DNA of 64,000 bases from Bacteroidaceae bacterium (GTDB lineage: Bacteria; Bacteroidota; Bacteroidia; Bacteroidales; Bacteroidaceae): NCBI GenBank assembly GCA_017398805.1, contig JAFQEZ010000063.1, positions 43,472-107,471 on the forward strand. Reading direction: 5' to 3'. The position numbers and the translations under genes were made by a program. This document shows, one piece after another, positions 30,490-45,049 of this stretch (the stretch's first letter is position 1; each line of letters starts with the position of its first letter). A model generated the notes under the pieces. The model ran no database searches. It saw only the letters and a list, made by a program, of their open reading frames with translations, and had not been told where the DNA came from.

Positions 30490-30571
30490 GTAAAAGCTTT
30501 ATGAGAACTATTGCAATTTAAAGTAAAACAAATTTGTGCCGGTAAAGTTATGCCGTTTGATTTTTTTGCAC

Positions 30572-30579: not shown

Positions 30580-30590
30580 CAGGCACAGTC

Positions 30591-30672: not shown

Positions 30673-32166
30673 CGATGAGACAAAAGAGGAGAATTCAAAA
30701 GAATTTTCCTCTTTTTTATTTTTGTAATTCACTGATAATCGTGCAATTATAGAAAGCGCCTCATTCTCATCAAAGGTTCGATAATTGTCTTTCTCCTTAT
30801 CCCACAAAATTCCATTAGGGAAAAGCAGATTTTGCAGTTTTTGGCAAGTTTCAAGCGAACCATCACGCCACAAACTGTCTAATTTACAGCACATTGCAAG
30901 TATGTCATCTACCTCGCCATCAAGGTTCGATAAATTTTTTCTGCACTCTGCCAAACCTCGCTCTATGTTATCAAGTTTTTCTTGCAAATCCTTGTTTGTC
31001 ATTTCGTATATCTCCTCATCAATCTCGCCCATGCCAAACCTAACCTTGCACTTCTTCAACTTGCCAATATATTCACTCTTTTGCTTTTTAAGCAATGTTT
31101 CCATGCTTCTAGCCTCATCATCATTGGAAATAATCATTTTTGAGATAATATCCCTCAAAAGCGGTTTAAGGCACTCTGCCACGTTAAAGAAACGCAATAG
31201 GCATTCATACCTCTCATGCAATTTCTTCGCTGATACGTTGGTTTTACAACCACTCTGATTGCATTTATAATAGTCGATGTTCTTCTTCTTGACTGTATAT
31301 GCAGTAAAAGGCGTTTTGTCTTTGGAACACAAGATATGGCGTTTCAAAGGGAAACGAGGAGTTTCCTTTTTGTGTTTGTAAACACCCGTTCTTCCACCCA
31401 ATATATCTTGCACACGCAAGAAATCCTCATAACTTACCAACTTTGGTTGATTACCATCGACCAACCTACCTTGCAACATCTTATGGCGTATTTTACCAGC
31501 ATAGAAAGGATTGGTAAGGATATGATGTAGTTTCTGTTTTCTCATAGTAAGTCCATAATCAGAGAGTTTCTTCAAAATCTCACAGTTTGCATACCCTTGC
31601 AGTTTCCACTTGAACGCCTTGCGTATCAAATGCCCTTTGTCGTTTACTGTAAAATATGTACCCAACGACTTGCCATGTTTATCATATCCCAACGGTTTAG
31701 CGGCACCACAATAGACACCACTTTCAAGGCAATGCTTACGACCTGACACAAATTTGTCAGTACGATTGCCGTTATCCCACTCAGCCAACCCCAACTTGAT
31801 ATGTATCATCATTCTTCCCTCATTAGTTGAACTATCTACGCCAGATGAAACATCAACAATGATAACATTCAGTTGTTTCAACTTTGAAACAATCATTGCT
31901 CCTTGTGCCACATTACGACTAAATCGGTCAATAGCAGGAACAAGTAGATGGGTTATTTTTTTATTTTTCTTTATAGACTCATACATTTCTTTAAGCATGG
32001 GGCCAGGCGTTTTTGCAGACTCATGCTTCCCTCCAAAGTAACCTTTTATAACAAATCCGTTTTGCCTTGCATACAACTCACATTTGGTCTTTTGGTCGCT
32101 TAAAGAAGCGCCATTATCCTCTTGGTGTTTTGTTGAGACTCTTGTCCAAATAACACAATTCTTCAT
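30664..32166 (-). CDS. Large serine recombinase (integrase)
   Basis: The N-terminus CVIWTRVSTKHQEDNGASLSDQ carries the catalytic Ser context. A recombinase domain, Cys-rich region (CSKD..C..SGC) and coiled-coil tail follow. The 3' end runs into the att junction. Confidence 0.85.
   Translation of the reverse strand: MKNCVIWTRVSTKHQEDNGASLSDQKTKCELYARQNGFVIKGYFGGKHESAKTPGPMLKEMYESIKKNKKITHLLVPAIDRFSRNVAQGAMIVSKLKQLNVIIVDVSSGVDSSTNEGRMMIHIKLGLAEWDNGNRTDKFVSGRKHCLESGVYCGAAKPLGYDKHGKSLGTYFTVNDKGHLIRKAFKWKLQGYANCEILKKLSDYGLTMRKQKLHHILTNPFYAGKIRHKMLQGRLVDGNQPKLVSYEDFLRVQDILGGRTGVYKHKKETPRFPLKRHILCSKDKTPFTAYTVKKKNIDYYKCNQSGCKTNVSAKKLHERYECLLRFFNVAECLKPLLRDIISKMIISNDDEARSMETLLKKQKSEYIGKLKKCKVRFGMGEIDEEIYEMTNKDLQEKLDNIERGLAECRKNLSNLDGEVDDILAMCCKLDSLWRDGSLETCQKLQNLLFPNGILWDKEKDNYRTFDENEALSIIARLSVNYKNKKEENSFEFSSFVSSCA
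30670..30690 (+). repeat. attL-like junction: tRNA 3' end GCAC joined to the element left-end sequence GATGAGACAAAAGAGGA
   Basis: GCACGATGAGACAAAAGAG recurs at 41258-41276 and 44105-44123. Confidence 0.8.
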
Positions 32167-32303
32167 AAGTCAATTTCTTTTTCTACAAAATTATTTATCC
32201 CAATTTCTGCCAATGCTGTCAAATATCCAATCAACACACTAGCCTCATCTTTAGTAATGTTTATTTTATTAAAGTATTCTTCATAATCACTGTATTTAAT
32301 CAT
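32163..32303 (-). CDS. Possible 46-aa upstream ORF coupled to the large serine recombinase
   Basis: Hand-translated MIKYSDYEEYFNKINITKDEASVLIGYLTALAEIGINNFVEKEIDL. Its TGA overlaps the recombinase ATG (ATGA). There is no other support. Confidence 0.25.
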   Translation of the reverse strand: MIKYSDYEEYFNKINITKDEASVLIGYLTALAEIGINNFVEKEIDL

Positions 32304-32658
32304 TCACAAAATACATTTTTCCTTGCCACAATACTCTGTGGCTTATTTTTTTGGTGCTTTGTGGCATACCAACAACGAGGAAACGCTGGAGCGTAAAGCA
32401 CCTGCTCGTTGCCATATAGATATTGCGAAAACAGACAGCACTCGCTGTGAAAGGAAATAAATTTCCTCTCGCTCGTTTGTAGCGTCTTTGCCTTTCGTGT
32501 TTGCAATAAACCTAATTCTTTCAAGGGTTGCCACCTTGTATTTTTACAATGTCTTTATTGATTATAACCCACTGTTGGAATATTCTCTTTTGCGCTTTGT
32601 TTCAGTGAGTTGTTTCGAAACATGGCAAACATATATTTTTTATTTTGAAAAAACAAAT

Positions 32659-33291
32659 TTACGCTTGCAATTTGTTAATATTTCTTAATTTTCTTAATGT
32701 ATTGACACTTGTCGATGTTATTGCAGATACATTACGAAGCGATAAACCTTTGCGCAAGAGTTGAATTTCCTTTGCATATTCCACCCTCATTGCTTCCTCG
32801 CTTTTGCGATAACCCTCTTTACGACCAACCTTGCCACCAATCGCTCTATAATGATTGTAACCACTCTCCATTCTGCTTCTTATGAGGCTACGCTCCATAC
32901 TGTTGAACTGTGCAAGAATACCCATTACAAGTTGTGCTATTGGATTGGATTGCCCATTGGGGAGCAGTGTTTCAAGTCCATTTTGGAGAATATATACGCT
33001 GATTTTCTTCGCTGTAAGATTTTCTATTACAGTAAGGAAATCTATTGCACGCCTCGATAAGCGACTGCACTCATAGATTAGAACCTTATCCACGTTGTTG
33101 CTCTCAACGAAAGAAAGCAACTCTGTAAGGGCTTGGCGTTCTGCGACTGTCTTTGCGCCACTAACCTTTTCGCAGAACTCCATCACAACCTCATATTCCA
33201 TCTTACGAGCATACTCACGCAACTCTGCCAACTGTCGCTCATAGTCTTGTCCTTGCGTGCTTACACGAGCGTATATAACAACCTTTGCCAT
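32659..33291 (-). CDS. Small serine recombinase (resolvase/invertase type) with a C-terminal HTH
   Basis: MAKVVIYARVSTQGQDYERQ at the ATG at 33291. Also has ...SRLSRR... and a C-terminal HTH (NVSAITSTSVNTLRKL). Confidence 0.8.
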   Translation of the reverse strand: MAKVVIYARVSTQGQDYERQLAELREYARKMEYEVVMEFCEKVSGAKTVAERQALTELLSFVESNNVDKVLIYECSRLSRRAIDFLTVIENLTAKKISVYILQNGLETLLPNGQSNPIAQLVMGILAQFNSMERSLIRSRMESGYNHYRAIGGKVGRKEGYRKSEEAMRVEYAKEIQLLRKGLSLRNVSAITSTSVNTLRKLRNINKLQA

Positions 33292-33304
33292 ACCCCTACT
33301 ACTA

Positions 33305-33556
33305 TTAAAGAACCTCGATAAGATTTTCAAAGCGAAGTGAACGAAATCCACCCTTTTCACAATCCCAATAGCAGACAGTGTTCACGCTATCTCTTGAAAT
33401 GCCTCTGCCATTGATGTTTGCTTTCATCAAGTTGCTTGCTGTTGTACCCCACGCCTCACGAAGCGTGCCATCTTTCTTCATATATACAAAGTGAGCAACA
33501 CCCATCTGCAACTTTGCTTTGAGTAAGTCAATCATCTGTGCCTTGATTACGCCCAT
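33305..33556 (-). CDS. DUF2693-like (SH3 beta-barrel) small protein
   Basis: 83 aa. The VAHFVYMKKDGTLREAWGT...CYWDCEKGGFRSLRFENL pattern resembles DUF2693 proteins of Bacteroidales mobile elements. Confidence 0.5.
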   Translation of the reverse strand: MGVIKAQMIDLLKAKLQMGVAHFVYMKKDGTLREAWGTTASNLMKANINGRGISRDSVNTVCYWDCEKGGFRSLRFENLIEVL

Positions 33557-33746
33557 TGCCTCGCTGTTTGTTCTACGAGCGATTACGCTTGCTCAACGAC
33601 TTGTAAGATTATTTATTACAACAACTGAATTATTTGCTACTGCTATCATGTCTCTATTGGTTAAGTGGTTAAACATATCTTTGTTTCCTTTTCGCACAGC
33701 AAAGATATGGAATATATTTAATATAATCAAACAAAATGCAATATTT

Positions 33747-33775
33747 TTATGGAATATTTTGATTATATTCCATAA
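33747..33775. promoter_or_regulatory. Operator-like palindrome in the divergent intergenic region
   Basis: TTATGGAATAT-N7-ATATTCCATAA has perfect 11-bp arms. A third ATGGAATAT lies at 33707-33715. Confidence 0.45.
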
Positions 33776-33806
33776 ATAACTACATTTGAAAATTAAAAAG
33801 CATAAA

Positions 33807-34031
33807 ATGGAAGCAAATAAACAAGAACGCACTGTAATACATCTAGAATTAAATGGAGAACATTACTATTTTGGCAGTGTAAAAGCACTTTGCGATAATT
33901 TTAGTAAAGAACAGATTGGTATTGGATACAAAAGTCTTGCAAACTATGGAATAACAGCAGATAAACCATATAGAAACAAATACTGTACTGTTAGAAAAGG
34001 AGTATTGATAACGGCTCCAAAAACTGAATAA
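33807..34031 (+). CDS. Small putative DNA-binding protein; truncated paralog at 41486-41648
   Basis: First ATG at 33807. The C-terminus YRNKYCTVRKGVLITAPKT parallels IYKNKKCTIRKGTLYVKPTT in element B. Confidence 0.4.
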   Translation: MEANKQERTVIHLELNGEHYYFGSVKALCDNFSKEQIGIGYKSLANYGITADKPYRNKYCTVRKGVLITAPKTE

Positions 34032-34088
34032 AATTTAATGTACAAAGTGTAATAAATACACGCAAAATAAACATGAAATAATAAGACT

Positions 34089-36158
34089 ATGAAAGCAAAT
34101 GAAGTGAGATTAACAGATTTCTTATCCAAAACAGATACGCAATTTGTCATCCCTATATATCAACGCAATTATGATTGGAAAAAGAATCATTGCGAACAGC
34201 TCATAAATGATATTTTAGAAGCTGGCAGAAATGAGAAAATACATTTTATAGGAAGTATTGTATATGTTCATGATGGGGTTTATTCAAGTGGTATTAAAGA
34301 GTTAGTTGTTATTGATGGACAGCAAAGAATAACAACTATTACCTTGCTATGTATAGCATTGTACCATTTCTTAAGGGAGAAAAATCCTACAGATATGCAA
34401 GCAAATAAGATTCTAAAACAATTCATTGTTAACGAGTTTGCAGAAGAGAATCAGAGGTTAAAATTAAAAGTTTCAGAAAACAATGACTCTGATTTAAAAG
34501 CGTTAATAAATGATTATCATACAGATGAAGAAACTTATTCTAACATTATAACGAATTACAAATATTTTAAACATCAAATATCAGATGAGAATGTTGATAC
34601 TATTTTGCGAGGTATTAACATGCTAATATTTGTAGAAGTTTCATTAGACAGAATACAAGATAATGCTCAACGCATCTTTGAAAGTATGAATTCAACTGGT
34701 TTGGATTTATCTCAAGCTGATTTAATTCGCAATTATATTCTTATGAACTTGTCTGCAAAAGAGCAGAATGAAATTTATAAAAAATATTGGGAATATATTG
34801 AAATATCAACTCGTATTGGCGCAGACAATAAAATGTCTGAATTTATAAGAGATTATCTTACTTTAAAGACTAAATGCATTACAAAGGAAGAAGAGGTATA
34901 TAAAACATTTAAACAGAAATACCCTCACCAAGACATAAATCAATTAGAGGATGTTTTGTCAGAGATAAAACAACTTGCAAAACCATATTCTAGACTTCTA
35001 TCTCCAACGAAAGAAGAAGACAAAAAAATCCAACAAGAAATCAAAAACATCAATTTACTCAAGATAAACACATCTTATCCTTTCCTTATGAAAGTTTATG
35101 ATGATTATTTGACTGATAAAATTGACAAGGATTGCTTCTATCGAATTTTGAGATTCATACAAACATTTGCCATAAGGCGATTTGTATTAGACCTCCCCAC
35201 AAATTCTTTCAATAAAATCTTTATGGTTTTATACGACAGGATAGACCAATCCAATTATGAAGAATCTATCTATAAATATATAATGTCTTTGGGAGGAAAA
35301 CAAAGAATCCCTAATGATAGTGAAATAAGGGAAACTTTGAAAGATAAAGATATATATTCTGCAAGGGGGAAAAACAAGGAATACCTTTTAGCACAACTTG
35401 AGAATTGGCAAAATAAAGAATTTGTTGAGATTGTTGGAAATGATAACATAACAATAGAACATATATTTCCACAGACACCAAATAATGATTGGAAAATACA
35501 ATTAAACAAAGAAGAATACAATGATTTTGCTTCAACATATCTACATACATTAGGCAATCTAACACTATCAGGGAACAACGGTTCGCTTGGGAATAAGACA
35601 TTTGAGCAAAAGAAGTACATGAATTACGATGGAAAAGAACAAGGATACATATATAGTCGTTTGTGGATGAATTCATATTTGAAAACCATAGACACTTGGA
35701 ATATCAAAAATTATCAAGAGCGTACAAAAATCCTCACAGACAGATTTCTTGAAGTGTGGAAATTGCCAAACATACATATTGAGAAAGATTCTTATGCAGG
35801 TGAAATCAATATATTTGATATAGATGACCCTACTGGAAAAACGATGCAATATGCTAGATTCTTTGGTAAAATTGTAAGGACTACAGACTCTAAATTGGAA
35901 TATGCGGGATTGTTGATTTATGTTGCAAAAAACATATACGAAATTGCTCCTAAAGAATTTATAGAAAATCTTTCAACAGAACTGAATCTTGGTAAAGATT
36001 TACCAAATTGGAGAAGACCTCAAAAAATAGATGAAGAATATAGTATAGAAACAAACCTTTCTGCTAAAGATATATTCAAAAGAGTTCGCTCAATTTTGAA
36101 TACATTTAGATTAGAAGAGGATTTGTATATCTGCTTTAAAGATGATGATGTAATTTAA
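34089..36158 (+). CDS. GmrSD-family (DUF262 + DUF1524) modification-dependent Type IV restriction endonuclease
   Basis: FVIPIYQRNYDW and VIDGQQRITT are DUF262/ParB-like motifs. ITIEHIFPQ...LHTLGNLTLSGNNGSLGNKTF is the DUF1524 His-Me finger. Confidence 0.85.
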   Translation: MKANEVRLTDFLSKTDTQFVIPIYQRNYDWKKNHCEQLINDILEAGRNEKIHFIGSIVYVHDGVYSSGIKELVVIDGQQRITTITLLCIALYHFLREKNPTDMQANKILKQFIVNEFAEENQRLKLKVSENNDSDLKALINDYHTDEETYSNIITNYKYFKHQISDENVDTILRGINMLIFVEVSLDRIQDNAQRIFESMNSTGLDLSQADLIRNYILMNLSAKEQNEIYKKYWEYIEISTRIGADNKMSEFIRDYLTLKTKCITKEEEVYKTFKQKYPHQDINQLEDVLSEIKQLAKPYSRLLSPTKEEDKKIQQEIKNINLLKINTSYPFLMKVYDDYLTDKIDKDCFYRILRFIQTFAIRRFVLDLPTNSFNKIFMVLYDRIDQSNYEESIYKYIMSLGGKQRIPNDSEIRETLKDKDIYSARGKNKEYLLAQLENWQNKEFVEIVGNDNITIEHIFPQTPNNDWKIQLNKEEYNDFASTYLHTLGNLTLSGNNGSLGNKTFEQKKYMNYDGKEQGYIYSRLWMNSYLKTIDTWNIKNYQERTKILTDRFLEVWKLPNIHIEKDSYAGEINIFDIDDPTGKTMQYARFFGKIVRTTDSKLEYAGLLIYVAKNIYEIAPKEFIENLSTELNLGKDLPNWRRPQKIDEEYSIETNLSAKDIFKRVRSILNTFRLEEDLYICFKDDDVI

Positions 36159-36174
36159 CTTTTATTTTGTCCAT

Positions 36175-36213
36175 AAATTGATTGCCACCGGCTTCGCCGA
36201 TGGCAATCAATTT
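36175..36213. terminator. Bidirectional hairpin between convergent genes; duplicated at 42676-42710
   Basis: AAATTGATTGCCACCGGC-ttc-GCCGATGGCAATCAATTT forms an 18-bp stem with one mismatch. Confidence 0.7.
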
Positions 36214-36223
36214 ATATAAAAAT

Positions 36224-37219
36224 CTATTTTATTTCATTATCAAATAAGAATAGAGGATAATCAATTTTGTAGTCAATAGAACCATTATCACGCAGTATTG
36301 TGAGTATCTTGCCCATTGCATTTTCGCCAATCAAGGTGTAGTTGCATTGGGCAAGTATTGTCTGTTCACATATATCCACAATATCGTTCATAGACTGCAA
36401 CTGTGCTTTGAGTTTATCATCAAAAGATTTCTGTTTAGAGGCACTACGAGGTTTTTTAAGCGAGGCAGTCTTTGCCAAAGCGTCTTTCTCAAACGAACGA
36501 ATATAACGCCCTGTAGAGGTTCTCACTGCCCTTACAAGGTCTTTTTTCTGCAAGTCTTGACAACCCCAACGATGAACGCTGTTTGTTGAGTTTTGCATGG
36601 TAGTATCTTCAACGATGATTTTTCCTTTTGTCTTTGCAAGCAACTTTTGAAAACCCTTATTTTGAGCATACTTCAAGTTTACAATATATTTCATTACCTC
36701 TACATCAAAATGGTTGTCATGCCAATTAGGGTGATGGAATTTCTTGTATTTTTCACCATTGACAAATATTTTCTTGCAATACATAGAATTGGGATATTCC
36801 ATAATCTCACGCTGTAAATCGGGATAACCCGAAAATCGCAAGGCAATAAACAAATGTTCGCTTGTCTTGAATTTATATCCACAGCACTCGACTGGGTACG
36901 CTGTGCTCATATTAGAAAATGCACCAAACTCACCATTCAATTTGCCAAAGGTTACAATATCATTTGACTTGTAATATTCAGTTCTGCCAAATACGATTTC
37001 ATAAGGATTGTATATGCTCTCTATCTCATTGGGTTTAGTATATAAATCCCTTATTGGGAGATTAAGGGCACGCCCCATAGTTTCGACAATCTTTTGACTT
37101 GCGTGTTCTCCTTTTAATAATGAATAGCAATATTCACGAGTAACACCTATCATTTGAGCAAACTCACGAACTGATATGCCTCTTTGGTTTATTATCTCTT
37201 TTACTCTTAATTCTGCCAT
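36224..37219 (-). CDS. HTH (XRE-like) fused to a NADAR (YbiA/DUF1768-like) domain protein
   Basis: The N-terminus is KEIINQRGISVREFAQMIGVTREYCYSLLKG. The central region GAFSNMSTAYPVECCGYKFKTSEHLFIALRF...NLKYAQNKGFQKLLAKTKGKIIVEDT...WGC follows the NADAR pattern. Confidence 0.6.
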   Translation of the reverse strand: MAELRVKEIINQRGISVREFAQMIGVTREYCYSLLKGEHASQKIVETMGRALNLPIRDLYTKPNEIESIYNPYEIVFGRTEYYKSNDIVTFGKLNGEFGAFSNMSTAYPVECCGYKFKTSEHLFIALRFSGYPDLQREIMEYPNSMYCKKIFVNGEKYKKFHHPNWHDNHFDVEVMKYIVNLKYAQNKGFQKLLAKTKGKIIVEDTTMQNSTNSVHRWGCQDLQKKDLVRAVRTSTGRYIRSFEKDALAKTASLKKPRSASKQKSFDDKLKAQLQSMNDIVDICEQTILAQCNYTLIGENAMGKILTILRDNGSIDYKIDYPLFLFDNEIK

Positions 37220-37297
37220 GAGAAATTGATTTTGACAAATGTAATATTATTTATTACAATATTGATAAATTGTCGATGTATTTGTATTAAAATAAAA

Positions 37298-37337
37298 ATG
37301 TATCAATATAACCTTAAAATTAGTCGTATTGATACAT
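37298..37337. promoter_or_regulatory. 11-bp perfect inverted repeat in the AT-rich region between the Rep_trans-like and NADAR genes
   Basis: ATGTATCAATA-N18-TATTGATACAT. Further TATCAATA/TATTGATA copies lie near 37258 and 37411. Confidence 0.45.
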
Positions 37338-37466
37338 TCTTTTTGTATTATTCTAACATAAAATATTAAACTGCATTTCATACATAGGTTTAATATAGAT
37401 TATCCTCTATTATATCAATAAATTAGAGTAATAATACATGTATTCATAGGGTGGTTTACTAATACC

Positions 37467-38351
37467 CTACGCTACAATATCAAGGACATCGAGGGTCTGT
37501 TTACCCTTGACTGTTTGGAAGCGTAGCACTCTGTTTGAAAAGTCAAGAAACAAACGCCAAAGGAAATCTTCGTTGCAGAACAGCATTGGATTGTATTCTA
37601 TACCCAAGTGTTGGAAATATTCTCGCAAGGTATCGCCATTGACACGAACCTCTAAACGAAAAAGATAGTTGGGGTTGCCATTGGCTTCTGCGATGTAGTG
37701 TTTGCCACTGTTGCTTTCGATTTCTCGTTTCTTGTTGTAGGCAGAGAGGCGTAAATCGCCATTCTTCTGCTGAACGATGAGGCTGTATTCCTTAATTCTA
37801 CGACAAGAACCTACACCAATGTAGAGTATATCTTCAAGGAGTTTATCCCTATCTGTTACCTTTGTGCCATTGACTATGGGGATAAGTGCTTCATCACGAA
37901 TGGCACGAATTAAGCGTTTGGATAGGTTGCGAGTGTCATCGAAAGCGAGGTCAAGGCGTGTAAGGTTGTGGAATTTCAATCCCAACATTCCCTCAATGTA
38001 ATCGAGGTAAACAAGGCGATTGTGGGTGTTATAGTTGTAGTTGAGGTATAGTTGCTTGTTGTCTATCTCAATCCATACGAAACCACTCATTTCGCCCTCT
38101 TTGTCTGCTTTCAATCCCCAACGCAATGTGCCAAAGCATTGCATATCGTACTCACTGTTGGGGTTGTTGCTTGTTCGTTCAAGATAGATGATTTTGTAGA
38201 TGTTATCGTAATATTTGCCCTCTGTCCTTTCAAGGCGAAAATCCCAATGTGGGAGTTCATAGACTTCGAGGGGTGTTTCCATTAGTTGATATAATGGAGA
38301 GTTCTCATAAAGTGTGTAGCATAGTTTTACTTTGTCAGCACTGATTTTCAT
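37467..38351 (-). CDS. Rep_trans-like rolling-circle replication initiator or MobT-type relaxase
   Basis: LTRLDLAFDD and RLSAYNKKREIE resemble the Rep_trans motifs (R.D.A.D and YdK..E). The start is taken at MKISADKV (38351). Confidence 0.5.
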   Translation of the reverse strand: MKISADKVKLCYTLYENSPLYQLMETPLEVYELPHWDFRLERTEGKYYDNIYKIIYLERTSNNPNSEYDMQCFGTLRWGLKADKEGEMSGFVWIEIDNKQLYLNYNYNTHNRLVYLDYIEGMLGLKFHNLTRLDLAFDDTRNLSKRLIRAIRDEALIPIVNGTKVTDRDKLLEDILYIGVGSCRRIKEYSLIVQQKNGDLRLSAYNKKREIESNSGKHYIAEANGNPNYLFRLEVRVNGDTLREYFQHLGIEYNPMLFCNEDFLWRLFLDFSNRVLRFQTVKGKQTLDVLDIVA

Positions 38352-38532
38352 TGTTAATACTGTTTTTATTCTCATTATTTCCATCATTGGGCTTATTGGG
38401 GATTGTACTCCAATATGCCCTCATGCCATCGCTGATGGCTTGTTTGTGGCTGTCGCTTAACGTGCGATTTTTCAACCCTTGACTGATACGCTGTTTGGTA
38501 TCTGCATTTAATTCTCTAAATTGTCTTTTCAT
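38335..38532 (-). CDS. Small basic protein with NUMOD3-like repeats
   Basis: ADTKQRISQGLKNRTLSDSHKQAISDGMRAYW. It overlaps the Rep-like start by 17 nt. Confidence 0.3.
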   Translation of the reverse strand: MKRQFRELNADTKQRISQGLKNRTLSDSHKQAISDGMRAYWSTIPNKPNDGNNENKNSINNENQC

Positions 38533-38744
38533 AAGCAATACTGTTTATATATAAATATTTCACAAACGAGCGAGATATAAAGCTTGCTTTAATATTTCAA
38601 AGCGAGTGCAGTAAATATTCATCGTTTACGATAAATAGTAGCATAAGTAGAAAAAGAGTAAATAGTAAGTAACTTTTTTGAAAAATATTTTTTGTACAAA
38701 AAACGAAAAACAGTTTTTACCTATACTACTAAAATGGTTTTGTG

Positions 38745-38860
38745 ATAAGCGATAGAGGTTACATAGATAAAAAGCACCCACAGAGGGGTGCTGAATGTGT
38801 TTTGCTATTTGATACCATTACCAACCTTGTCAAAAGTCACCATATCACAAACATTTCGAG
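38745..38860 (-). repeat. Backbone junction: minus-strand terminator hairpin plus 3' remnant of the 92-95-aa end gene
   Basis: AGCACCC-acagag-GGGTGCT (38773-38792) is followed on the minus strand by a T-run. The remnant encodes ...CDMVTFDKVGNGIK*. Nts 38745-38831 are near-identical to 42781-42864. Confidence 0.7.
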
Positions 38861-38976
38861 ATGTTGTTTTGTTTAAATTTGAGAGTTTTCCTCAAAACCA
38901 CTTGCAAAATAGGATTTTGCATACTATTTTTGAAAAGTTTTTGAGATTTATTAGCAACAATCTAACAATCAATCAT

Positions 38977-40245
38977 ATGTTACTAGAATTTTCTTGTGCA
39001 AATTTTAGGTCTATTCATAAAGTATGCACATTATCAATGGTCGCTCAAAAAATTACAGATGAGCCCAAAAACAATATCGCTTATGTAAACGATAAACTAA
39101 ACATTTTGAAGACTGCTGCAATTTATGGAGCAAACTCTAGTGGAAAATCGAATGTGCTTAATGCATTTGCATCAATGGTTTGGCATATTATATATTCTGT
39201 AAAATTAAATGATGGAGATGAACTACGCTATGAGCCGTTCAAATTATCTTCCGCTGGTAAAGAGGCTACATATTATGAAGCAAAGTTTATATTAAATGGT
39301 CAAACATATCGTTATGGTTTTGAACATGATGACAAAACAATTATTAGTGAATGGCTTTATTCATCTTCTATTGGTAGTAAAAAAGAGCAAATTTTGTTTC
39401 TTCGCAATGAAGATGGTATTGGAGTTAATGAAAAAAGTTTTCCAGAAGGTGTTGATAAGGAAGAAAGCACTGTTGAAAACCGACTTTTCTTATCCTTATG
39501 TGCACAATTAAATGGTAAATGTTCAAAACAAATAATAGATAAATTCAAGACATTCAATGTTATATCAGGTATAAACTCCAATCGTTATGCAGGTTATTCA
39601 AAAGCAATGTTGCATAAACAATTAGATGGATATGGAGATGCTATTGATTTTTTTAAAACACTTCAATTAGGATTTGAATCAATTCAAACGAAAGAACGGG
39701 AAGTTGAAATTCCTGAAGATTTTCCAGAAAGAATAAAAGAAGAACTTACGAACAAACTAAAAGGCAAAAAAGATATTGAGTTAAGAAGCATTCATAATGT
39801 GTATGATGAAGATGGAAGAATCGTTGGTACTACTTTGTTTGATTTTAATAGAGCAGAATCTGAAGGAACAAAAAAAATAATTCAATTATCAGGTCCGATA
39901 TTTGATACTTTAAATAGGGGACTTGTACTCTGTGTAGATGAAATTGATGTAAAGATGCACCCACTTATATCGCAGTTCATTATTAACTTATTTAATGATC
40001 CCGAAAAGAATACAAAAAATGCCCAACTTATATTTACAACACACGACACTCATTTGCTCTCATCTAAAATGTTAAGAAGAGACCAAATTTGGTTTACGGA
40101 AAAGGATGCCACAGAGCAAACTGACCTATACAACATGATGGACATTGAACTCCCTGATGGAAGCAAGCCTCGTCCTGATGCAAATTATAAGCGCAACTAC
40201 ATCGCTGGTAGATATGGTGCTATTCCATATATAATAAATGAATGA
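38977..40245 (+). CDS. AAA/ABC-type ATPase (AbiLi/RloA-like)
   Basis: The ATG at 38977 gives MLLEFSCANFRSI. Walker A is GANSSGKSN, Walker B is LCVDEIDVKMHP, and QLIFTTHDTHLL follows. Confidence 0.8.
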   Translation: MLLEFSCANFRSIHKVCTLSMVAQKITDEPKNNIAYVNDKLNILKTAAIYGANSSGKSNVLNAFASMVWHIIYSVKLNDGDELRYEPFKLSSAGKEATYYEAKFILNGQTYRYGFEHDDKTIISEWLYSSSIGSKKEQILFLRNEDGIGVNEKSFPEGVDKEESTVENRLFLSLCAQLNGKCSKQIIDKFKTFNVISGINSNRYAGYSKAMLHKQLDGYGDAIDFFKTLQLGFESIQTKEREVEIPEDFPERIKEELTNKLKGKKDIELRSIHNVYDEDGRIVGTTLFDFNRAESEGTKKIIQLSGPIFDTLNRGLVLCVDEIDVKMHPLISQFIINLFNDPEKNTKNAQLIFTTHDTHLLSSKMLRRDQIWFTEKDATEQTDLYNMMDIELPDGSKPRPDANYKRNYIAGRYGAIPYIINE

Positions 40246-40967
40246 TTATGGCTAGAAAAATAAAAATAGACAATGCTATCTTAAAGCGCTTTGAGCAAAA
40301 AACAAGAAAGCAAAAGGCTAGTAAGAAAATTTCTTGTCGAATTCTTATTGTTTGCGAAGGCGAAAAAACCGAGCCTAATTACTTTAAAAAATTCAAATTG
40401 ATAAGCAATAACAGCTTTACTTATGAAGTCCATTGTGAAGGCTGTGGCGAGGGAACAATGAAGGTTGTTAATACAGCTATTCACTTAGCAAAAAAAACAG
40501 AACTTTCGTCACAGCCTTATGATAGCGTTTGGGCTGTTTTTGACAAAGATAATTTTGCTGATTTCAATGCAGCTATTGAAAAAGCAGAGAACAACAATAT
40601 CAATGTTGCATGGAGTAATGAAGCTTTTGAATTATGGTATTTATACCATTTCCATAATCGTACAACACGAATGAGTAGAAATGACTATAAAAAAGCAATT
40701 TCTGATGCCGTAAACGCCACTGGTAAATGGCCTAAGAAGCAACCATATGAATACAAAAAAGAAGATGAAAATAATTACAACATCATGAACACTTATGGCA
40801 ATATAAGGAATGCTATAAAGTGGGCAAAACAACAACATCAGACATTTGCTGACAAAAATTACGCAAACCAAAACCCATGCACTACAGTATATAAACTTGC
40901 ACTACAGTTATTGAATGAAGATAAAGATTTGATTGATGCTGTAATGAATAAGATAAACTCCAACTAA
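40242..40967 (+). CDS. RloB-like (AbiLii-like, Toprim-related) protein
   Basis: RILIVCEGEKTEPNYFK and AWSNEAFELWYLYHF are RloB signatures. The start overlaps the ATPase stop (ATGA). Confidence 0.8.
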   Translation: MIMARKIKIDNAILKRFEQKTRKQKASKKISCRILIVCEGEKTEPNYFKKFKLISNNSFTYEVHCEGCGEGTMKVVNTAIHLAKKTELSSQPYDSVWAVFDKDNFADFNAAIEKAENNNINVAWSNEAFELWYLYHFHNRTTRMSRNDYKKAISDAVNATGKWPKKQPYEYKKEDENNYNIMNTYGNIRNAIKWAKQQHQTFADKNYANQNPCTTVYKLALQLLNEDKDLIDAVMNKINSN

Positions 40968-41251
40968 CAATTAAGCATATCGGGTTTATCAACATCACAA
41001 ACTCTCTCAAAAGTTACCATATCGTAACCCTCTGCTCTCAAATAATGAACGAAATCCACGACTTTTAGAAAGTCTCGTTTAAAGTTGGCTGTGCCGACAA
41101 TTTCTTGCCACGGCATAGATGAAACAAGTTTCTCTCTGCCCGTTTGGCTTAACGAAATGTTGGCTTCGCCTTCAATTTCTCGCCATGGCAAAGTGCAAGC
41201 AAGCTCGCCTTTGCTCATTTGGCTTAACGAAATTGTTCGATAATTTGTCAC
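40964..41251 (-). CDS. Uncertain 95-aa ORF (GTG start) covering two 75-nt repeat units plus a conserved C-terminal segment
   Basis: Paralog of 43820-44098. Only the C-terminal part (ANFKRDFLKVVDFVHYLRAEGYDMVTF) is conserved in all copies and remnants. The N-terminal part may be non-coding repeat. Confidence 0.35.
   Translation of the reverse strand: MTNYRTISLSQMSKGELACTLPWREIEGEANISLSQTGREKLVSSMPWQEIVGTANFKRDFLKVVDFVHYLRAEGYDMVTFERVCDVDKPDMLNC
41084..41233. repeat. Two tandem 75-nt units (type A then type B), each with an internal imperfect hairpin
   Basis: The units begin GTTGGCT and end TTTGGCTTAACGAAA. The hairpins lie at 41112-41140 and 41188-41214. Confidence 0.8.
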
Positions 41252-41278
41252 AAATTTGCACGATGAGACAAAAGAGGA
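41245..41278 (+). repeat. attP-like junction between elements A and B
   Basis: TTGTCACA-aatttGCACga-TGAGACAA is an imperfect dyad. It equals the right-end 16-mer plus the left-end GATGAGACAAAAGAG. Confidence 0.75.
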
Positions 41279-41309
41279 ATTCTCAAAAAAAGAGAGTTCC
41301 TCTTTTTTT

Positions 41310-41492
41310 GAGAATCGACAATACTTGCAGCAATAGGTCGCAGGATGCGTGGCGTAGTCACGCCCTGCGGGTTGCGAAAAGCGAGTGTTGTCAATTTTAC
41401 TATCAGAATCGACAATGCCGACAGCGGTTGGTCAAACGAAGTACGGGCGAAGCTCGTACCGTTTGGGCCGCGATAAGGAGGCGTTGTCAATT
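41310..41492 (+). repeat. Two tandem ~95-nt modules: AGAATCGACAAT box, bulged hairpin, GTTGTCAATT box
   Basis: Boxes lie at 41311/41405 and 41387/41483. Hairpins lie at 41339-41369 and 41433-41465. Confidence 0.7.
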
Positions 41493-41648
41493 AAAAAAGC
41501 AGGTATTTCCCAAGCGGCATTAAACAACTATTTCAGCAAGTTGGGAGAGAATGATGAACCCATATATAAAAACAAAAAGTGTACCATAAGAAAAGGTACA
41601 CTCTATGTTAAACCCACAACAAGGGGGCGTAAGAAACAAGGGGAATAA
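41486..41648 (+). pseudogene. Probable 5'-truncated paralog of the small DNA-binding gene 33807-34031
   Basis: Only the C-terminal half is homologous, and there is no ATG near the start of homology (TTG at 41486). Confidence 0.3.
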
Positions 41649-41806
41649 GATTGATAAAATTTATAATTTGCTTTATCAAAATTAGTAACTTTGCTAACAA
41701 ATGCGAATAGTGTTATAAAATAGACTTATAACACCTAAAAACTCTACCAAAGTGGAGATTTTGCAGAAATAATGACTTATTCATTCGGTATAAATCTAAA
41801 ACATAT

Positions 41807-41814
41807 TATATTTG
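41807..41814 (+). promoter_or_regulatory. Candidate -7 box TATATTTG upstream of the TM/zinc-ribbon gene
   Basis: Matches TAnnTTTG, about 290 nt upstream of the ATG at 42105. Confidence 0.35.
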
Positions 41815-42104
41815 CAGAAACATAACAAAAAACACATGCCTATGAAGCATTGACAAATTAAAGACATATAAATAAAAAGCGTTAGCTTGTATTCTTGTTC
41901 TTGAAAATCGCCAAATTTTAAAGAGCACCAAGGGTAAAAGTTAATGCTCACGTCATTCTATGGCGTGGGCTTTTACTCGTATATGGTGCACGGTGTTTGG
42001 CGATACCTCAAGAACATAGACGAAGTTTTAGTCCACGTTTTTTATTTGTCTAAATTGGGGGATTTTGGACAATTACAACAATTTAATTTTAAAAAAATAA
42101 GTTT

Positions 42105-42641
42105 ATGGAAAATTTTGATTTTACTTGGGTAGCATGCGGTATAATATGGGCATTAATCGCAGTATCAGGCACTTGGATTGCAGCTCAAGTTATGGATAAT
42201 TTTACAACCAAGAAAAATAACATCATAATTATACTGTCAATCTTGTCTATAATAGAAATAGTTCTATTTATAAAATTGCTCGATTATATGGGACCTGAAT
42301 ATGGTGGAGGTTATAGTAAATTCAGTTTCGGGAACAAATTTCATTTAGGTTATTTAGCTAGTATGGTTTTACAAGGAGTTTTTGGTTACATCTTTGCAAG
42401 AAATACAAGTGACATCTGCCCGCATTGTGGAACTTGGAACGAGATTAACGGAATTGCCGAGGTTGATAGTCGTGAATATTCTAAATGGGAAACTCATAGC
42501 AACAACATAAGGGATAAACACGGAAATAAAGTCGGGTCTTATGATAGTAGGCATTTACATAATTACAACGAAAAAGAGTTTTTGGTTGAATGTAAAAAAT
42601 GTGGAACGCAATTTTATGTAAAAAGAACATATGAAGCCTAA
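42105..42641 (+). CDS. Membrane protein (about 3 TM helices) with a C-terminal CxxC...CxxC zinc-ribbon
   Basis: 178 aa. The hydrophobic segments are WVACGIIWALIAVSGTWIAAQV, IIIILSILSIIEIVLFIKLL and LGYLASMVLQGVFGYIFA, followed by CPHCG...CKKCG. Confidence 0.6.
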   Translation: MENFDFTWVACGIIWALIAVSGTWIAAQVMDNFTTKKNNIIIILSILSIIEIVLFIKLLDYMGPEYGGGYSKFSFGNKFHLGYLASMVLQGVFGYIFARNTSDICPHCGTWNEINGIAEVDSREYSKWETHSNNIRDKHGNKVGSYDSRHLHNYNEKEFLVECKKCGTQFYVKRTYEA

Positions 42642-42675
42642 TCAAAATCCATTAATAACTGATTAAACTTTATAC

Positions 42676-42864
42676 AATGATTGCCACCGGCTTCGCCGAT
42701 GGCAATCATTTAATATAAAAATCTACTTTATTTCATTATCAAATAAGAATAAGGGATAATCAATTTTGTAGTCAACGAATATAAGGATAGGGGTTACATA
42801 GATAAACAGCACCCACAGAGGGTGCTGGTACTGTTTTAGGATTTGATACCATTACCAACCTTGT
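42676..42864. repeat. Backbone blocks shared with element A, fused by deletion of the NADAR-Rep module
   Basis: Nts 42676-42775 match 36176-36276 (terminator plus the last ~50 nt of the NADAR gene). Nts 42781-42864 match 38745-38831. Confidence 0.8.
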
Positions 42865-42949
42865 AAGAATATTTATTTAGAAATATTTTAAATTACGTTA
42901 AAAAATAGATTTTGTGGCAATACAAATTGTTTTGTATAATATAATGCAT

Positions 42950-42957
42950 TATATTTG
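42950..42957 (+). promoter_or_regulatory. Candidate -7 box TATATTTG, with TTTG at 42931-42934
   Basis: Matches the Bacteroidetes promoter consensus immediately upstream of the structured leader. Confidence 0.45.
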
Positions 42958-42964
42958 CAGTAAC

Positions 42965-43056
42965 GATTAGGCTCACGGCAAAGCGTATCCGATAGCATCC
43001 AATCAGTTGCTAATCTCGATAGTGGATACGCCTACCCTTGAGCATTTTTTATTTTA
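42965..43056 (+). ncRNA. Structured ~90-nt leader or small RNA ending in a terminator-like T-run, 12 nt before the NYN gene ATG
   Basis: There are three nested stems: GCTCA/TGAGC (42971-75/43039-43), GCGTATCC/GGATACGC (42983-90/43024-31) and TAGCA/TGCTA (42993-97/43008-12). ATTTTTTATTTT follows. Confidence 0.4.
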
Positions 43057-43068
43057 TTACTTATTACC

Positions 43069-43764
43069 ATGAAAACAAATTCCTTTCCTCCAGTAAAAAT
43101 TGCAGTGTTAATTGATGGTGGTTTCTTTATAAAGCGTTTTAATGCTTTATATAATAAAGATAGAAAAATGTCTGGTAAAGATGTCGCAGAGTGCTTATAT
43201 ACTTTCGCACATAGTCATGTCGGTAATGAAAATACGTTATATAGGATTTTTTATTATGACTGCCTACCGCTGGATAAAAAAATGCATAACCCTATAACAA
43301 AAAAAGCTATTGATTTTTCAAAAAGTGAAGAGTACAAGTTTAGGGTTGAGTTATTTGAAACTCTAAAGATGAAACGTAAAGTCGCTTTGAGACTTGGCAA
43401 TTTAAAAGATAATGGAAAATGGTGCATACATAGTAATAAAGTTAAAGAATTATTATCTGGAAAAATAAAAGTTGAAGACTTAAAAGAAAATGATGTATAT
43501 CTTGAAATACGCCAGAAAGGCATTGACATGAAAATTGGTGTTGATATATCTTCAATCGCATTAAAAAGATTTGTCGACAGAATTATATTAATATCAGGAG
43601 ACGCGGATTTTGTACCTGCGGCAAAACTAGCAAGAAGGGAAGGCGTGGACTTCATTCTTGACCCTATGGGAGCAAATGTAGAACCTAGTTTATTTGAACA
43701 TATAGACGGTTTAGAAAACAAAAATATTCGAATTAATAGAAAGAACAAACCAAAAAAGAAATAA
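43069..43764 (+). CDS. NYN-domain (LabA/PIN-like) putative ribonuclease
   Basis: VKIAVLIDGGFF...RIFYYDC...QKGIDMKIGVDISS...IILISGDADFVPAAKLARREGVDFILDPM follows the NYN pattern. Confidence 0.8.
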   Translation: MKTNSFPPVKIAVLIDGGFFIKRFNALYNKDRKMSGKDVAECLYTFAHSHVGNENTLYRIFYYDCLPLDKKMHNPITKKAIDFSKSEEYKFRVELFETLKMKRKVALRLGNLKDNGKWCIHSNKVKELLSGKIKVEDLKENDVYLEIRQKGIDMKIGVDISSIALKRFVDRIILISGDADFVPAAKLARREGVDFILDPMGANVEPSLFEHIDGLENKNIRINRKNKPKKK

Positions 43765-43819
43765 ACGTTTTTCATTTCCTTTATTCTGTTTCATATCTAT
43801 TTTAAATCGAATAACACTT

Positions 43820-44098
43820 TTATTGTTTATTGACAGCATTGCTACCAACCTTGTCAAAAGTTACCATATCGTAACCCTCTGCTCTCAAATAATGAACAAA
43901 ATCCACGACTTTAAGAAAGTCTCGTTTAAAGTTGGCTTCGCCTTCAATTTCTCGCCATGGCAAAGTGCAAGCAAGCTCGCCTTTGCTCATTTGGCTTAAC
44001 GAAAAGTTGGCTTCGCCGACAATTTCTCGCCACGGCATAGATGAAACAAGTTTCTCTCTGCCCGTTTGGCTTGACGAAATTGTTCGATAATCTGTCAC
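43820..44098 (-). CDS. Uncertain 92-aa ORF (GTG start), paralog of 40964-41251
   Basis: It has the same C-terminal segment. The N-terminal part is the two 75-nt units in the opposite order. Confidence 0.35.
   Translation of the reverse strand: MTDYRTISSSQTGREKLVSSMPWREIVGEANFSLSQMSKGELACTLPWREIEGEANFKRDFLKVVDFVHYLRAEGYDMVTFDKVGSNAVNKQ
43931..44080. repeat. Two tandem 75-nt units (type B then type A)
   Basis: Near-identical to the 41084-41233 units, but the order is swapped. Confidence 0.8.
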
Positions 44099-44123
44099 AA
44101 ATTTGCACGATGAGACAAAAGAG
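44092..44123 (+). repeat. attP-like junction between elements B and C
   Basis: CTGTCACAAATTTGCACGATGAGACAAAAGAG. Confidence 0.75.
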
Positions 44124-44565
44124 CAGAGTTTTCCGCTCTTTTTTTATGCAAACTCCTCCGCTTTTCATAGAAAAGGTGTCACGCAGTGACGGAGGAGTTC
44201 CTTAAGCCCTGTGGTTGCGGTCAGCAAGCATATCGCTATATTTACACCGACAATTTAGAATCTATGGAATACAAATATCCTTTTGGAGAAATAGTTAAAC
44301 CGTTAGTACAAAAAGACAGAACAGCAAAGCAGGTATTTGTCCTTGGTGTATATGCCAGTGCTGTGCATGCAAAATGGAAAAAGGGGAATGAAATTGTATG
44401 TCAGGCATTGGCAGTTACAAGTGAACCAAGAATTTTTTGGGATGGCAACCCTGATGAAGCCAAGGAAATTATCAGTAAAATCCATATTCCAGATGAGTTT
44501 GGGACTTTAGAGCCATCAGGGAGTCATTTAAATGGGCCTTCAGCAAAAGTGTCACAAATTTGCAC
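44109..44565. mobile_element. Element C: 0.46-kb remnant retaining both element ends
   Basis: The left end is GATGAGACAAAAGAG plus a hairpin (44117-44142). The right end is TGTCACAAATTTGCAC (44550-44565). Confidence 0.55.
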
Positions 44566-44611
44566 TACCCCAACTGCGCTTTTGAAAAAAAATCAAGAAT
44601 ATTTTGATTAA
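44186..44611 (+). CDS. Hypothetical ORF, probably a gene fragment running across the element C right end
   Basis: GTG start. Homology-free by eye. The 16-mer right end lies inside codons ...AKVSQICTT... Confidence 0.25.
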   Translation: MTEEFLKPCGCGQQAYRYIYTDNLESMEYKYPFGEIVKPLVQKDRTAKQVFVLGVYASAVHAKWKKGNEIVCQALAVTSEPRIFWDGNPDEAKEIISKIHIPDEFGTLEPSGSHLNGPSAKVSQICTTPTALLKKNQEYFD

Positions 44612-44624
44612 TTATAAAAAGTAT

Positions 44625-44632
44625 TACCTTTG
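44625..44632 (+). promoter_or_regulatory. Candidate promoter (-7 TACCTTTG, -33 TTTG at 44603-44606) far upstream of rtcB
   Basis: Good match to TTTG-N18-TAnnTTTG. Confidence 0.5.
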
Positions 44633-44639
44633 CAGCCGA

Positions 44640-45049
44640 AAATTAACGAATTCAAATAACAAACATGACAGCAAACTGTACTAAAGCTAATGAACAGAGG
44701 TATAGTAACTGAAAGGTGAGCGTGTCGGATTTCAGCTCATCATTTCAGTAAAAGAAGATGTTGAAATCCGGAAAAACAGAACGAGTAAGCAGACTCACCA
44801 GAATCATGTAATAGAAAAGAATGAGTAGAACGCAACAGATTCCCCGACTACAGCAGAATGGCTGAATGCCGTCGGGTCCCTGTCATCGACTTCCTTCAAG
44901 AAGCACAACAATCCATGCCACACCGAGCAGAAGGTAAAGGTGTACGTATCAGAGGCATGTGAAAGAGAAAATCACTATTTTTACAAACACGACAAGAAGT
45001 GCTGCATAACAGATGCGGCATAAGAGTTGTCATAAACACATATAAGACA
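44640..45049 (+). other. ~400-nt non-coding leader upstream of rtcB with several strong hairpins
   Basis: GGTGAG/CTCACC (44715-20/44794-99) encloses CGGATTTCA/TGAAATCCG (44726-34/44762-70). CCCGAC/GTCGGG lies at 44843-48/44871-76. There is no ORF longer than 15 codons with an ATG. Confidence 0.4.

Follow-up and report, generated by a model that had tools for sequence, protein, structure and literature searches.

The DNA considered here is a stretch of 64,000 nucleotides (the window) from a Bacteroidaceae bacterium (GenBank assembly GCA_017398805.1, contig JAFQEZ010000063.1, positions 43,472 to 107,471). Within it lies a low-GC island of 13.9 kb (30670-44565), a tandem array of three related units, termed A, B and C', placed head-to-tail behind a tRNA-Leu gene with the anticodon TAG. 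Unit A carries a large serine recombinase (LSR), several further backbone genes and, at two delimited places or slots, recognisable defence genes. The island is probably an array of one family of small integrative elements, inserted by the LSR at the 3' end of tRNA-Leu(TAG), with slots that mostly hold defence or toxin-antitoxin (TA) modules.

Junctions and limits of the array

The tRNA-Leu gene (30591-30673, plus strand; ARAGORN, Rfam tRNA at 61 bits) is the putative integration target. Two exact repeats mark the units behind it, and the chance expectation for either is zero. The 16-mer TGTCACAAATTTGCAC, which is the end of a short reading frame called the 'end gene' in the first-pass annotation plus a core, is present at 41246, 44093 and 44550, and the 19-mer GCACGATGAGACAAAAGAG at 30670, 41258 and 44105. 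Their positions define four junctions, in the order tRNA|P', P|P', P|P' and P|host, where P and P' are the two arms of the attachment (att) site, and therefore three units: A (30674-41261, 10.6 kb), B (41262-44108, 2.85 kb) and C' (44109-44565, 0.46 kb). The two elements that had been proposed for this region are thus retained with corrected limits, as units of an array at tRNA-Leu, and C' is added to them.

Comparison of junctions places the core at GCAC (30670-30673), that is, the last tRNA bases plus C. At the terminal junctions of three related loci (L011, L012 and L029) and of the window (44550), identity ends after GCAC and host-specific sequence follows; both L012 and L029 have a terminator hairpin there. 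This leaves a short common core, as is usual for serine integrases. The whole 19-nt repeat was considered as the att core and rejected on the same observation; its remaining 15 nt are the conserved start of the P' arms. The P' arm of unit A (30674-30720, plus strand) begins with GATGAGACAAAAGAG, a start common to the left ends of B and C, and holds a replacement terminator hairpin for the tRNA together with the last codons of the integrated LSR. The A/B junction (41258-41310, plus strand) consists of the core GCAC and the P' arm of B with a hairpin of its own, each P' arm in fact bringing its own terminator for the tRNA. The attR site (44550-44565, plus strand) is composed of the final 12 nt of a P arm and the core GCAC, and host DNA begins at 44566. 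A hairpin to the right of 44123 was at one point taken for host flank; this was rejected, as the same sequence begins an att-bounded unit in L015 and L019.

Related loci were collected with the end gene as query (29 loci) and, in addition, through homologues of the LSR. All integrated copies lie at a tRNA 3' end, and many of the 29 loci are multi-junction arrays, such as L010 with three att junctions. In the mechanism that we propose, the LSR would insert an element at GCAC and the P' arm would supply the tRNA with its replacement terminator. The predicted junction of the circular form would read ...TGTCACAAATTT-GCAC-GATGAGACAAAAGAG..., and the predicted empty site ...CCTATCACGCGCAC-TACCCCAACTGCGC.... 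An Rfam scan of 30000-45000 at E<=1 returned the tRNA only, apart from a sub-threshold psRNA14 match that corresponds to the H1 terminator hairpin described below.

A recombinase reading frame probably divided by integration

The LSR gene (30664-32166, minus strand) encodes 500 amino acids (aa) and, in what would be its integrated form, ends at a TGA stop inside the tRNA gene. It matches Pfam Resolvase (PF00239, 6e-21) and Recombinase (PF07508, 3e-11) as well as the integrase family phrog_95 (7e-59), and PF13408 is additionally present in some homologues. There are 453 homologues, and among the best 120 nearly all are exactly 500 aa long; the LSR query gave no match in PLSDB. Longer homologues read through another tRNA on the opposite strand. 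In these relatives (57-75% identity; P0008, P0015, P0021, P0036, P0083 and others), the C terminus is extended, for example by ...LCARRDSNPHASRHQILSLARLPITP, and the added residues translate the reverse strand of a different tRNA gene. This implies that the family targets more than one tRNA, with the open reading frame (ORF) always running into the target.

The end gene had been described as a gene of the shared backbone. It is instead, judging from the continuity of the frames, the 3' end of the LSR reading frame, cut off by integration since attP lies inside the frame. No stop codon of the element itself ends the LSR frame ahead of the core, so that the circular form must read on into the end-gene sequence, and joining the ends of A yields a single ORF of 596 aa that passes through ...EFSSFVSSC-KFVTNYRT... 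into the end gene. This tail of A occupies 40964-41257 (minus strand; P arm 41246-41257) and the tail of B 43820-44104 (minus strand; P arm 44093-44104). As the P arm lies within the LSR frame, integration would remove the last ~30-95 codons. In the 29 related loci, no stop interrupts the tail frame at any junction that bears a tail, and the frame is continuous with LSR fragments in L002, L005, L010, L020, L022 and L024, where an A-type unit follows another unit. More distant relatives give the same picture: the predicted circular form has an in-frame tail in L030 (LSR 72% identity; ...KLC-EYMKDYRTFKEDFFKIIDFCHYLHEEGYDLMKF, with ~6 nt shared around the core) and in L121 (63% identity; ...NLC-ADLTDYRTFINDLKKITCFLDWYNDRKV). 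No tail was found within 10 kb in L119 (59% identity), and no full-length LSR-plus-tail protein is present among the best 120 of the 453 homologues.

The tail is constrained as protein. In 32 distinct sequences of its last 25 codons, the variable columns number 10, 9 and 23 at the first, second and third codon positions, and the pairwise differences 928, 1044 and 3401, respectively; these codons are under purifying selection at the protein level. The 75-nt units that precede them behave differently. Tail A has two such units in frame (41081-41155 and 41156-41232, minus strand) and tail B has two in the opposite order, 43928-44004 corresponding to 41155-41232 (98.7%) and 44003-44084 to 41081-41161 (93.9%). 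They show no codon-position bias (626, 746, 558), one copy contains an in-frame stop, and between loci their number ranges from 0 to 5; two types are distinguished by an exchanged palindromic core. Given the missing codon-position bias and the in-frame stop, a reading as protein repeats was rejected, and we take the units to be a module that functions as DNA or RNA and was inserted in frame; it could provide protein-binding sites or an origin. The 75-nt units (41081-41232 and 43928-44079, minus strand) also abut an LSR C-terminal fragment in L002 and L005.

Several smaller observations concern the same region. The tail begins with TDYRTF(M/K)xDFLKVVDFVHYL, which is similar to the LSR segment DNYRTFDENEALSIIARLS at ~residues 455-473 (41233-41250 versus 31480-31500, coding sense), a likeness that suggests an internal duplication. 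Three lineages have kept the DNA motif GATTATCGAAC in their P arms, always equally far from the core. The 25-nt resemblance of 33338-33362 to 41046-41070 was dismissed as fortuitous, since the two copies are read in different frames (CEKGGFRS versus FLKVVDFVH).

It is conceivable, though we hold it to be doubtful, that the divided frame makes the LSR a topology-dependent switch between a 500-aa integrated form ending in tRNA sequence and a form of ~530-596 aa, the tail of which would alter directionality. The longer protein would be made from the excised circle or from an LSR that has another unit of the array to its left, and its conserved C-terminal peptide ...DYRTF..DF.K..DF.HYL...GYD..TF resembles the preceding DNYRTFDENEAL segment of the LSR. 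If this were true, the tail would be a built-in directionality factor or auto-inhibitor, the state of the element itself would control integration and excision with no separate factor, and recombinase-less units retaining a tail would provide it to neighbouring LSRs.

The backbone of unit A

Unit A is the autonomous form of the element, comprising the LSR, a small serine recombinase, a WYL_2 protein, a phrog_10608 gene, a gene with helix-turn-helix (HTH) and NADAR domains, and a Rep_trans-like gene. The small serine recombinase, of the resolvase/invertase type (32659-33360, minus strand; Pfam Resolvase 2e-33, phrog_125 1e-38), probably starts at Met24 (33291). It is followed by the gene for the small WYL_2 protein (33305-33556, minus strand; PF10902, 7e-22), conserved in L035 and L119, and by the small phrog_10608 gene (33786-34031, plus strand), with 33807 as its likely start. 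Between slot 1 and the NADAR gene lies H1 (36166-36222), a bidirectional terminator hairpin consisting of an inverted repeat with 27-nt arms, of which B has a copy. The HTH-NADAR gene (36224-37219, minus strand) matches Pfam NADAR at 3e-13 together with HTH_3, and the NCBIfam anti-phage NADAR family DS32_2 at 1e-28, below the cut-off of that family. Its position is a third variable place, since in the relatives L007 and L035 it is taken by a RhuM-like gene with Fic (PDC-M59A, E 2e-125). The left flank of slot 2 is formed by H2 (38745-38846), a terminator with a remnant of the last LSR-tail codons, which is contiguous with the tail in the empty sites of L020, L022 and L024.

The remaining backbone gene encodes a protein of 306 aa, p306 (37467-38387, minus strand), for which a role as a Rep_trans-like rolling-circle initiator or a relaxase is predicted. 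The protein has no Pfam match at E<=0.01, and PF02486 in particular is not significantly matched. Its homologues were aligned (23 sequences), and an AlphaFold2 model of the protein reached a pLDDT of 80.8 and a pTM of 0.80. In a Foldseek search of the PDB with this model, the top five hits were chains of the Rep_trans initiators 4cij and 4cwe (E 1e-7 to 3e-7, probability 1.0, TM 0.33-0.54), and TBP-fold proteins ranked after them. A distant homologue on a 4.1-kb gut plasmid has sub-threshold matches to Rep_trans (E 0.0025, 17.9 bits versus a cut-off of 29.6) and to Phage_CRI, and the homologues share invariant tyrosines, such as Y189 in a low-confidence loop. On the modelled fold we infer a Rep_trans-like initiator or a MobT-like relaxase, through which the element may be replicated or transferred. 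PDB sequence and profile searches with p306 and with the transmembrane (TM)/zinc-ribbon and NYN proteins of unit B (see below) returned nothing significant. Upstream of p306, a stretch of ~75 nt (38553-38630) recurs as 1-3 tandem inverted copies in L017, L018 and L027, to the right of the last recognisable tail in the first two and ~3 kb from the tail in the third; a small dispersed repeat and a sequence resembling an origin are both possible readings.

Two slots with variable cargo

In unit A, slot 1 is occupied by a GmrSD type IV restriction enzyme (34089-36158, plus strand; Pfam GmrSD_N 1e-38 and GmrSD_C 1e-19, also PADLOC) and slot 2 by AbiLi (38977-40245) and AbiLii/RloB (40242-40967), both on the plus strand, with PADLOC matches at 2e-91 and 9e-30 and Pfam matches to AAA_21 and RloB. 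Pfam and PADLOC therefore agree with the first-pass annotation that the recognisable cargoes of A are defence genes, and the identities it had given to all cargoes were borne out, including the NYN gene and the membrane/zinc-ribbon protein in unit B. The backbone genes lie on the minus strand and the cargo mostly on the plus strand, which places the slots at convergent gene ends: slot 1 precedes the H1 terminator, and slot 2 directly follows the conserved end of the LSR tail.

The comparison of homologous elements that the first-pass annotation had proposed was carried out on the 29 end-gene loci and the loci of LSR homologues. In these relatives from other gut Bacteroidales the slots do vary, and genes of Abi, TA and restriction type dominate. 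In a census of about 35 related units, slot 2 contains at least eight different modules or none, and 21 of its 25 occupied copies hold Abi, TA or PADLOC-type genes. The modules are DUF4160-DUF2442-HTH (6 units), Gp49/HigB-like with HTH (5), AbiL (4), a SocA/Panacea TA pair (3), a 355-aa protein of no known family (3), NYN (2), AAA_14/DUF4143 (PDC-S01; 1) and Acyltransferase_3 (1), and 4 units are empty (L020, L022, L024 and L035). Across loci, slot 1 has GmrSD alone or with a ResIII helicase, Mrr with a DUF4379/restriction endonuclease protein, McrBC, T5orf172 or a BspA-like repeat protein, and in B-type units, behind a leader, small membrane proteins or lipoproteins. The 59%-identity relative L119 carries AbiH. 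Moreover, the same cargo is found in different backbones: NYN is present both in B and in a p306-bearing unit of L023, and the DUF4160 module stands behind A-, B- and C-type left ends. Two slot-2 proteins have no Pfam or PADLOC match, namely the 355-aa protein (L007, L010 and L014), which has an N-terminal CxxC motif, and the 155-aa partner of the SocA/Panacea antitoxin (L012, L017 and L018). Both are good candidates for new toxins or defence effectors.

Breakpoints of slot 2 were defined against L020, an empty site in which H2, tail and att are contiguous. In 18 units, the cargo is inserted at reference positions 102-129, a window of 28 nt that directly follows the conserved ...YDMVTF. Only the Panacea TA pair lies elsewhere (positions 56-84). 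The AbiL cassettes have one common junction with a 17-nt duplication, decayed in three of the four copies. It had been suggested that cargo is exchanged by recombination at the end-gene sequence beginning TACCAACCTTGT... (in full TACCAACCTTGTCAAAAGTTACC), which is present at 38819-38846 and 43843-43870 with 96% identity over 28 nt. The breakpoints do cluster at TACCAACCTTGT/CAAAAGT, but the microstructure of the junctions differs between cargo types and does not show a single precise recombination site. Related units would, in the proposed mechanism, swap cargo at the slots through conserved flanks. The clustering of breakpoints is explained equally well if insertions survive where the site is permissive.

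Units without a recombinase

Unit B has neither a recombinase nor p306, and both of its LSR arms are intact. The first-pass annotation had treated A and B as collinear, with four near-identical backbone blocks, a description that applies to three of them (87-93% identity by blastn). These are the block of hairpin and NADAR 3' end, which includes the last 17 NADAR codons (36173-36276 versus 42672-42775; 93.3% over 104 nt, E 1e-39), the terminator with the end-gene remnant (38745-38830 versus 42781-42864; 87.5% over 88 nt, E 2e-22), and the end gene with the 75-nt units (41007-41276 versus 43854-44123; 86.8% over 272 nt, E 2e-83). The fourth block, containing the small gene (33807-34031 versus 41486-41648), is only distantly similar, its best DNA match being 82% over 33 nt (E 0.08), and the products are homologous at the protein level only (phrog_10608, E 6e-18 and 9e-4). 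Collinearity stands insofar as relatives have variable cargo at the same two places, but B is a deletion derivative without NADAR and the Rep-like gene and not a full parallel backbone.

The left part of B is made of modules specific to this type of unit. Two structured repeats of 94 nt (r94; 41311-41498, plus strand) share a consensus fold which, over 12 units, has 28 pairs, 14 of them with compensatory changes. The fold is a long hairpin, it is also present in L003, L005, L008, L009, L011, L014, L015 and L016, and it matches no Rfam family. The flanks AGAATCGACAAT...GTTGTCAATT of r94 are invariant, and the 5' flank is like the conserved P-arm motif TCGATAAT. Next comes a 3' remnant of the small backbone gene (41497-41648, plus strand), the 5' half of which, on alignment to the full-length copy of L035, has been replaced by r94. 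A conserved non-coding leader of ~300 nt (41770-42075, plus strand), aligned over 6 copies with a Bacteroides-type promoter in front, precedes different slot-1 genes, encoding small envelope proteins, in different units. The copies are too similar for a covariation test. The leader has a TAnnTTTG promoter and evident long-range complementary segments, and is also found in L005, L008, L011 (two copies) and L117.

Farther to the right, a copy of H1 with the NADAR 3' remnant (42669-42775) adjoins a copy of H2 (42781-42864). This arrangement (42669-42864 in all), which is also present in L003 and L018, is by its composition a scar of the deletion of NADAR and p306. In addition, B-type left ends with r94 and leader adjoin tRNA-Leu in L003, L005, L011, L014 and L117, with different cargo and different host flanks. 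From these comparisons, B is a recombinase-less deletion derivative forming a lineage and not mere debris. It would fit a non-autonomous element that an A-type LSR can move, by analogy with recombinase-less cassettes of the staphylococcal cassette chromosome (SCC) type, whose movement by a recombinase has been shown experimentally (PMC11470126).

The cargo of B is less readily recognised than that of A. Slot 1 holds the gene for a near-orphan membrane protein with a C-terminal zinc ribbon (42105-42641, plus strand), which has no family match, no meaningful PADLOC match and 3 homologues among 5.8 billion proteins; the homologue examined in its context (L117) lies in a B-type unit at tRNA-Leu. 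Slot 2 (42950-43764, plus strand) holds a promoter, a structured leader (~42965-43060) and the NYN gene (43069-43764). The NYN protein matches Pfam NYN (4e-9) and phrog_5783 (9e-88), with weak matches to PADLOC NYN (E 4e-6) and HEC-09 (E 1.6e-3), and 111 relatives occur in gut phage contigs, with a common structured leader. In this leader (42950-43068, plus strand; compared over L037-L116), 7 of 13 pairs show compensatory changes. Its pattern is GATTA, P1, a variable P2 hairpin, GATAATGG, and then P1' with a U-run just before the start codon; it matches no Rfam family, and it looks like an attenuator or other cis-regulator. The two proteins had been put forward as defence or toxin modules by their position. 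This remains guilt by association, the PADLOC match of NYN being weak and the TM/zinc-ribbon protein nearly an orphan, and as defence genes they are candidates by position only.

Unit C' is clearly a deletion remnant, on comparison with L019. Its body (44105-44549, plus strand) opens with the core GCAC, followed by a P' arm of C type with its hairpin, the third kind of left end in the array. Next is a truncated gene that starts at 44264; ~96 codons remain from its 5' end, and these are joined by deletion to the last 12 nt of a P arm. In L019, to which C' is 96.4% identical over 446 nt, the gene encodes 255 aa and lies inside an att-bounded unit.

Alternative explanations

Several observations weigh against the proposed array of integrative elements. 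Among the 29 loci found through the tail, an intact LSR is present, besides the window, only in L010, and the other arrays have only 3' fragments of it; many arrays may thus be immobile fossils. To our knowledge, canonical LSRs recombine attP with attB only, so that arrays could form only if specificity were relaxed, as it is in SCC, or by way of co-integrates or of homologous recombination within the tail. The predicted empty attB was not found in two metagenome scans and no circular form was recovered, the related loci come mostly from contigs of metagenome-assembled genomes, slot-2 junctions differ in detail between cargo types, and the Rep_trans assignment of p306 comes from a predicted fold (TM 0.44-0.54) with no significant sequence match.

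The strongest competitor holds that B and C' are inert decay products of A-like elements, the shared blocks reflecting common descent and deletions, with neither trans-mobilisation nor ongoing exchange at the slots. The scars of B, with H1 and H2 adjacent and the NADAR and small genes truncated, agree with this, as do the remnant nature of C' and the many LSR fragments with varied deletion end points. Simple decay does not readily account for the B modules r94 and leader, which are 80-98% identical across genomes despite differing host flanks and cargo, for the occurrence of B-type units both first and later in arrays, for the intact preservation of both LSR arms in B, or for identical cargo in different backbone types. 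It is therefore considered the less probable account.

A second possibility is that the end gene is an independent small gene, for example for a directionality factor or regulator, adjacent to att by chance. A possible start of its own (GTG in the window, ATG in L030), the constraint at the protein level and its retention in LSR-less units would suit such a gene. On the other hand, the LSR frame reaches the core without a stop codon of its own, and the circle is therefore bound to read into the tail; the frame is open and matched in three lineages in which cores and tails differ; and the start of the L121 tail has neither ATG nor GTG. Chance adjacency is accordingly improbable, and the readings as a small gene and as LSR tail are not mutually exclusive.

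Still less probable is an integron-like cassette system, in which a site-specific recombinase, such as the small serine recombinase, moves cargo at the tail end. The left breakpoint ...CCAACCTTGT| is common to five cargo types to the nucleotide, the empty slot-2 site is an imperfect palindrome (AACCTTG-T-CAAAAGTT), and small serine recombinases are statistically linked to defence genes (PMC13552941). Yet the right breakpoints are scattered over several nucleotides, the duplications are anywhere from 0 to 31 nt long, and the Panacea TA pair is inserted at another point (reference positions 56-84). Moreover, the recombinases of the island are all of the serine type, no conserved, attC-like motif is shared by the cassette ends, and B-type units have variable cargo but no small recombinase.

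Finally, although small units with an integrase, a Rep-like gene and regulators, several PHROG matches and NYN relatives common in gut phage contigs recall PICI- or P4-like phage satellites packaged by a helper phage, no capsid, terminase or packaging-redirection genes were found and no close relative of the LSR, p306 or the TM/zinc-ribbon protein is present in 2.9 million IMG/VR contigs, which makes a phage or satellite identity unlikely, and the satellite version the least probable of the alternatives.

Relation to known systems

The closest analogue of the array of LSR-bounded elements is found in the tandem SCC-like defence cassettes of staphylococci. In composite SCC/SCCmec islands, tandem SCC-like cassettes are mobilised by the Ccr large serine recombinases (Hossain et al. 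2024, PMC11470126). Common to both systems are LSR integration, as proposed here, at the 3' end of a conserved housekeeping gene, head-to-tail cassettes with att-like junctions, recombinase-less beside recombinase-bearing cassettes, and a cargo rich in anti-phage defence. The best NCBIfam match of the LSR is also CcrB (E 1e-19), but its 70.7 bits, versus a cut-off of 900, and 25 bits for CcrC, again versus 900, place it outside the Ccr family. Unlike SCC, the present elements have a single LSR instead of CcrA and CcrB, target tRNA-Leu instead of rlmH (orfX), and reside in Bacteroidales; their backbone adds a small serine recombinase and a Rep_trans-like gene, and attP lies inside the LSR frame.

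The divided frame has a parallel in archaea. The SSV1 integrase, a tyrosine recombinase of an archaeal virus, is split into two large parts. Partitioning of the gene by integration has been described for integrases of this SSV1 (fusellovirus) type (PMC8371274). As there, the recombinase gene contains the attachment site, so that the encoded form of the enzyme depends on whether the element is integrated or excised, and the target is a tRNA gene. Unlike SSV1, the enzyme here is a bacterial serine recombinase, which loses only a C-terminal tail of ~30-95 residues and keeps all recognised domains.

Defence hot spots are known from P2/P4 and from the phage-inducible chromosomal islands (PICIs), and tandem accretion with cis-mobilisable elements from ICESt1/CIME. 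Pipolins likewise belong to the small integrative elements with defence hot spots (PMC11551731). These systems share with the present family a conserved backbone with a few permissive positions at which unrelated defence or TA modules alternate, non-autonomous derivatives retaining only att sites, and accretion at a tRNA gene. They differ in using tyrosine integrases (some pipolins excepted), other replication modules and other hosts. The RADS pipeline has associated small serine recombinases with defence genes, also in Bacteroidota, the top categories being TA, Abi and restriction (PMC13552941). In keeping with this, the small serine recombinase gene of unit A lies within 1-2 kb of defence cargo. 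That work is statistical and does not describe element anatomy, whereas in the present family the gene for the small recombinase belongs to the backbone of an element bounded by LSR sites, and cargo is also carried by units that have no recombinase. What appears to be new is the element family with its tRNA target, the recombinase-less lineages with structured RNAs, and the reading frame split by attP.

Significance

For gut Bacteroidales, the anatomy of the element family offers a reason why defence genes are marked by serine recombinases, a link that has so far been statistical. For the SCC-like logic of one recombinase, tandem cassettes, recombinase-less passengers and defence cargo, it also supplies an independent counterpart, which belongs to a different phylum and has a tRNA gene as its target. 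The two delimited slots are a practical bait for new defence genes, among them NYN with its leader, the TM/zinc-ribbon protein, the 355-aa protein, the Panacea partner and several others, and an LSR with a short core and defined arms is of possible interest to genome engineers. Lastly, the split recombinase frame suggests a testable coupling of the form of the recombinase to the integration state of the element.

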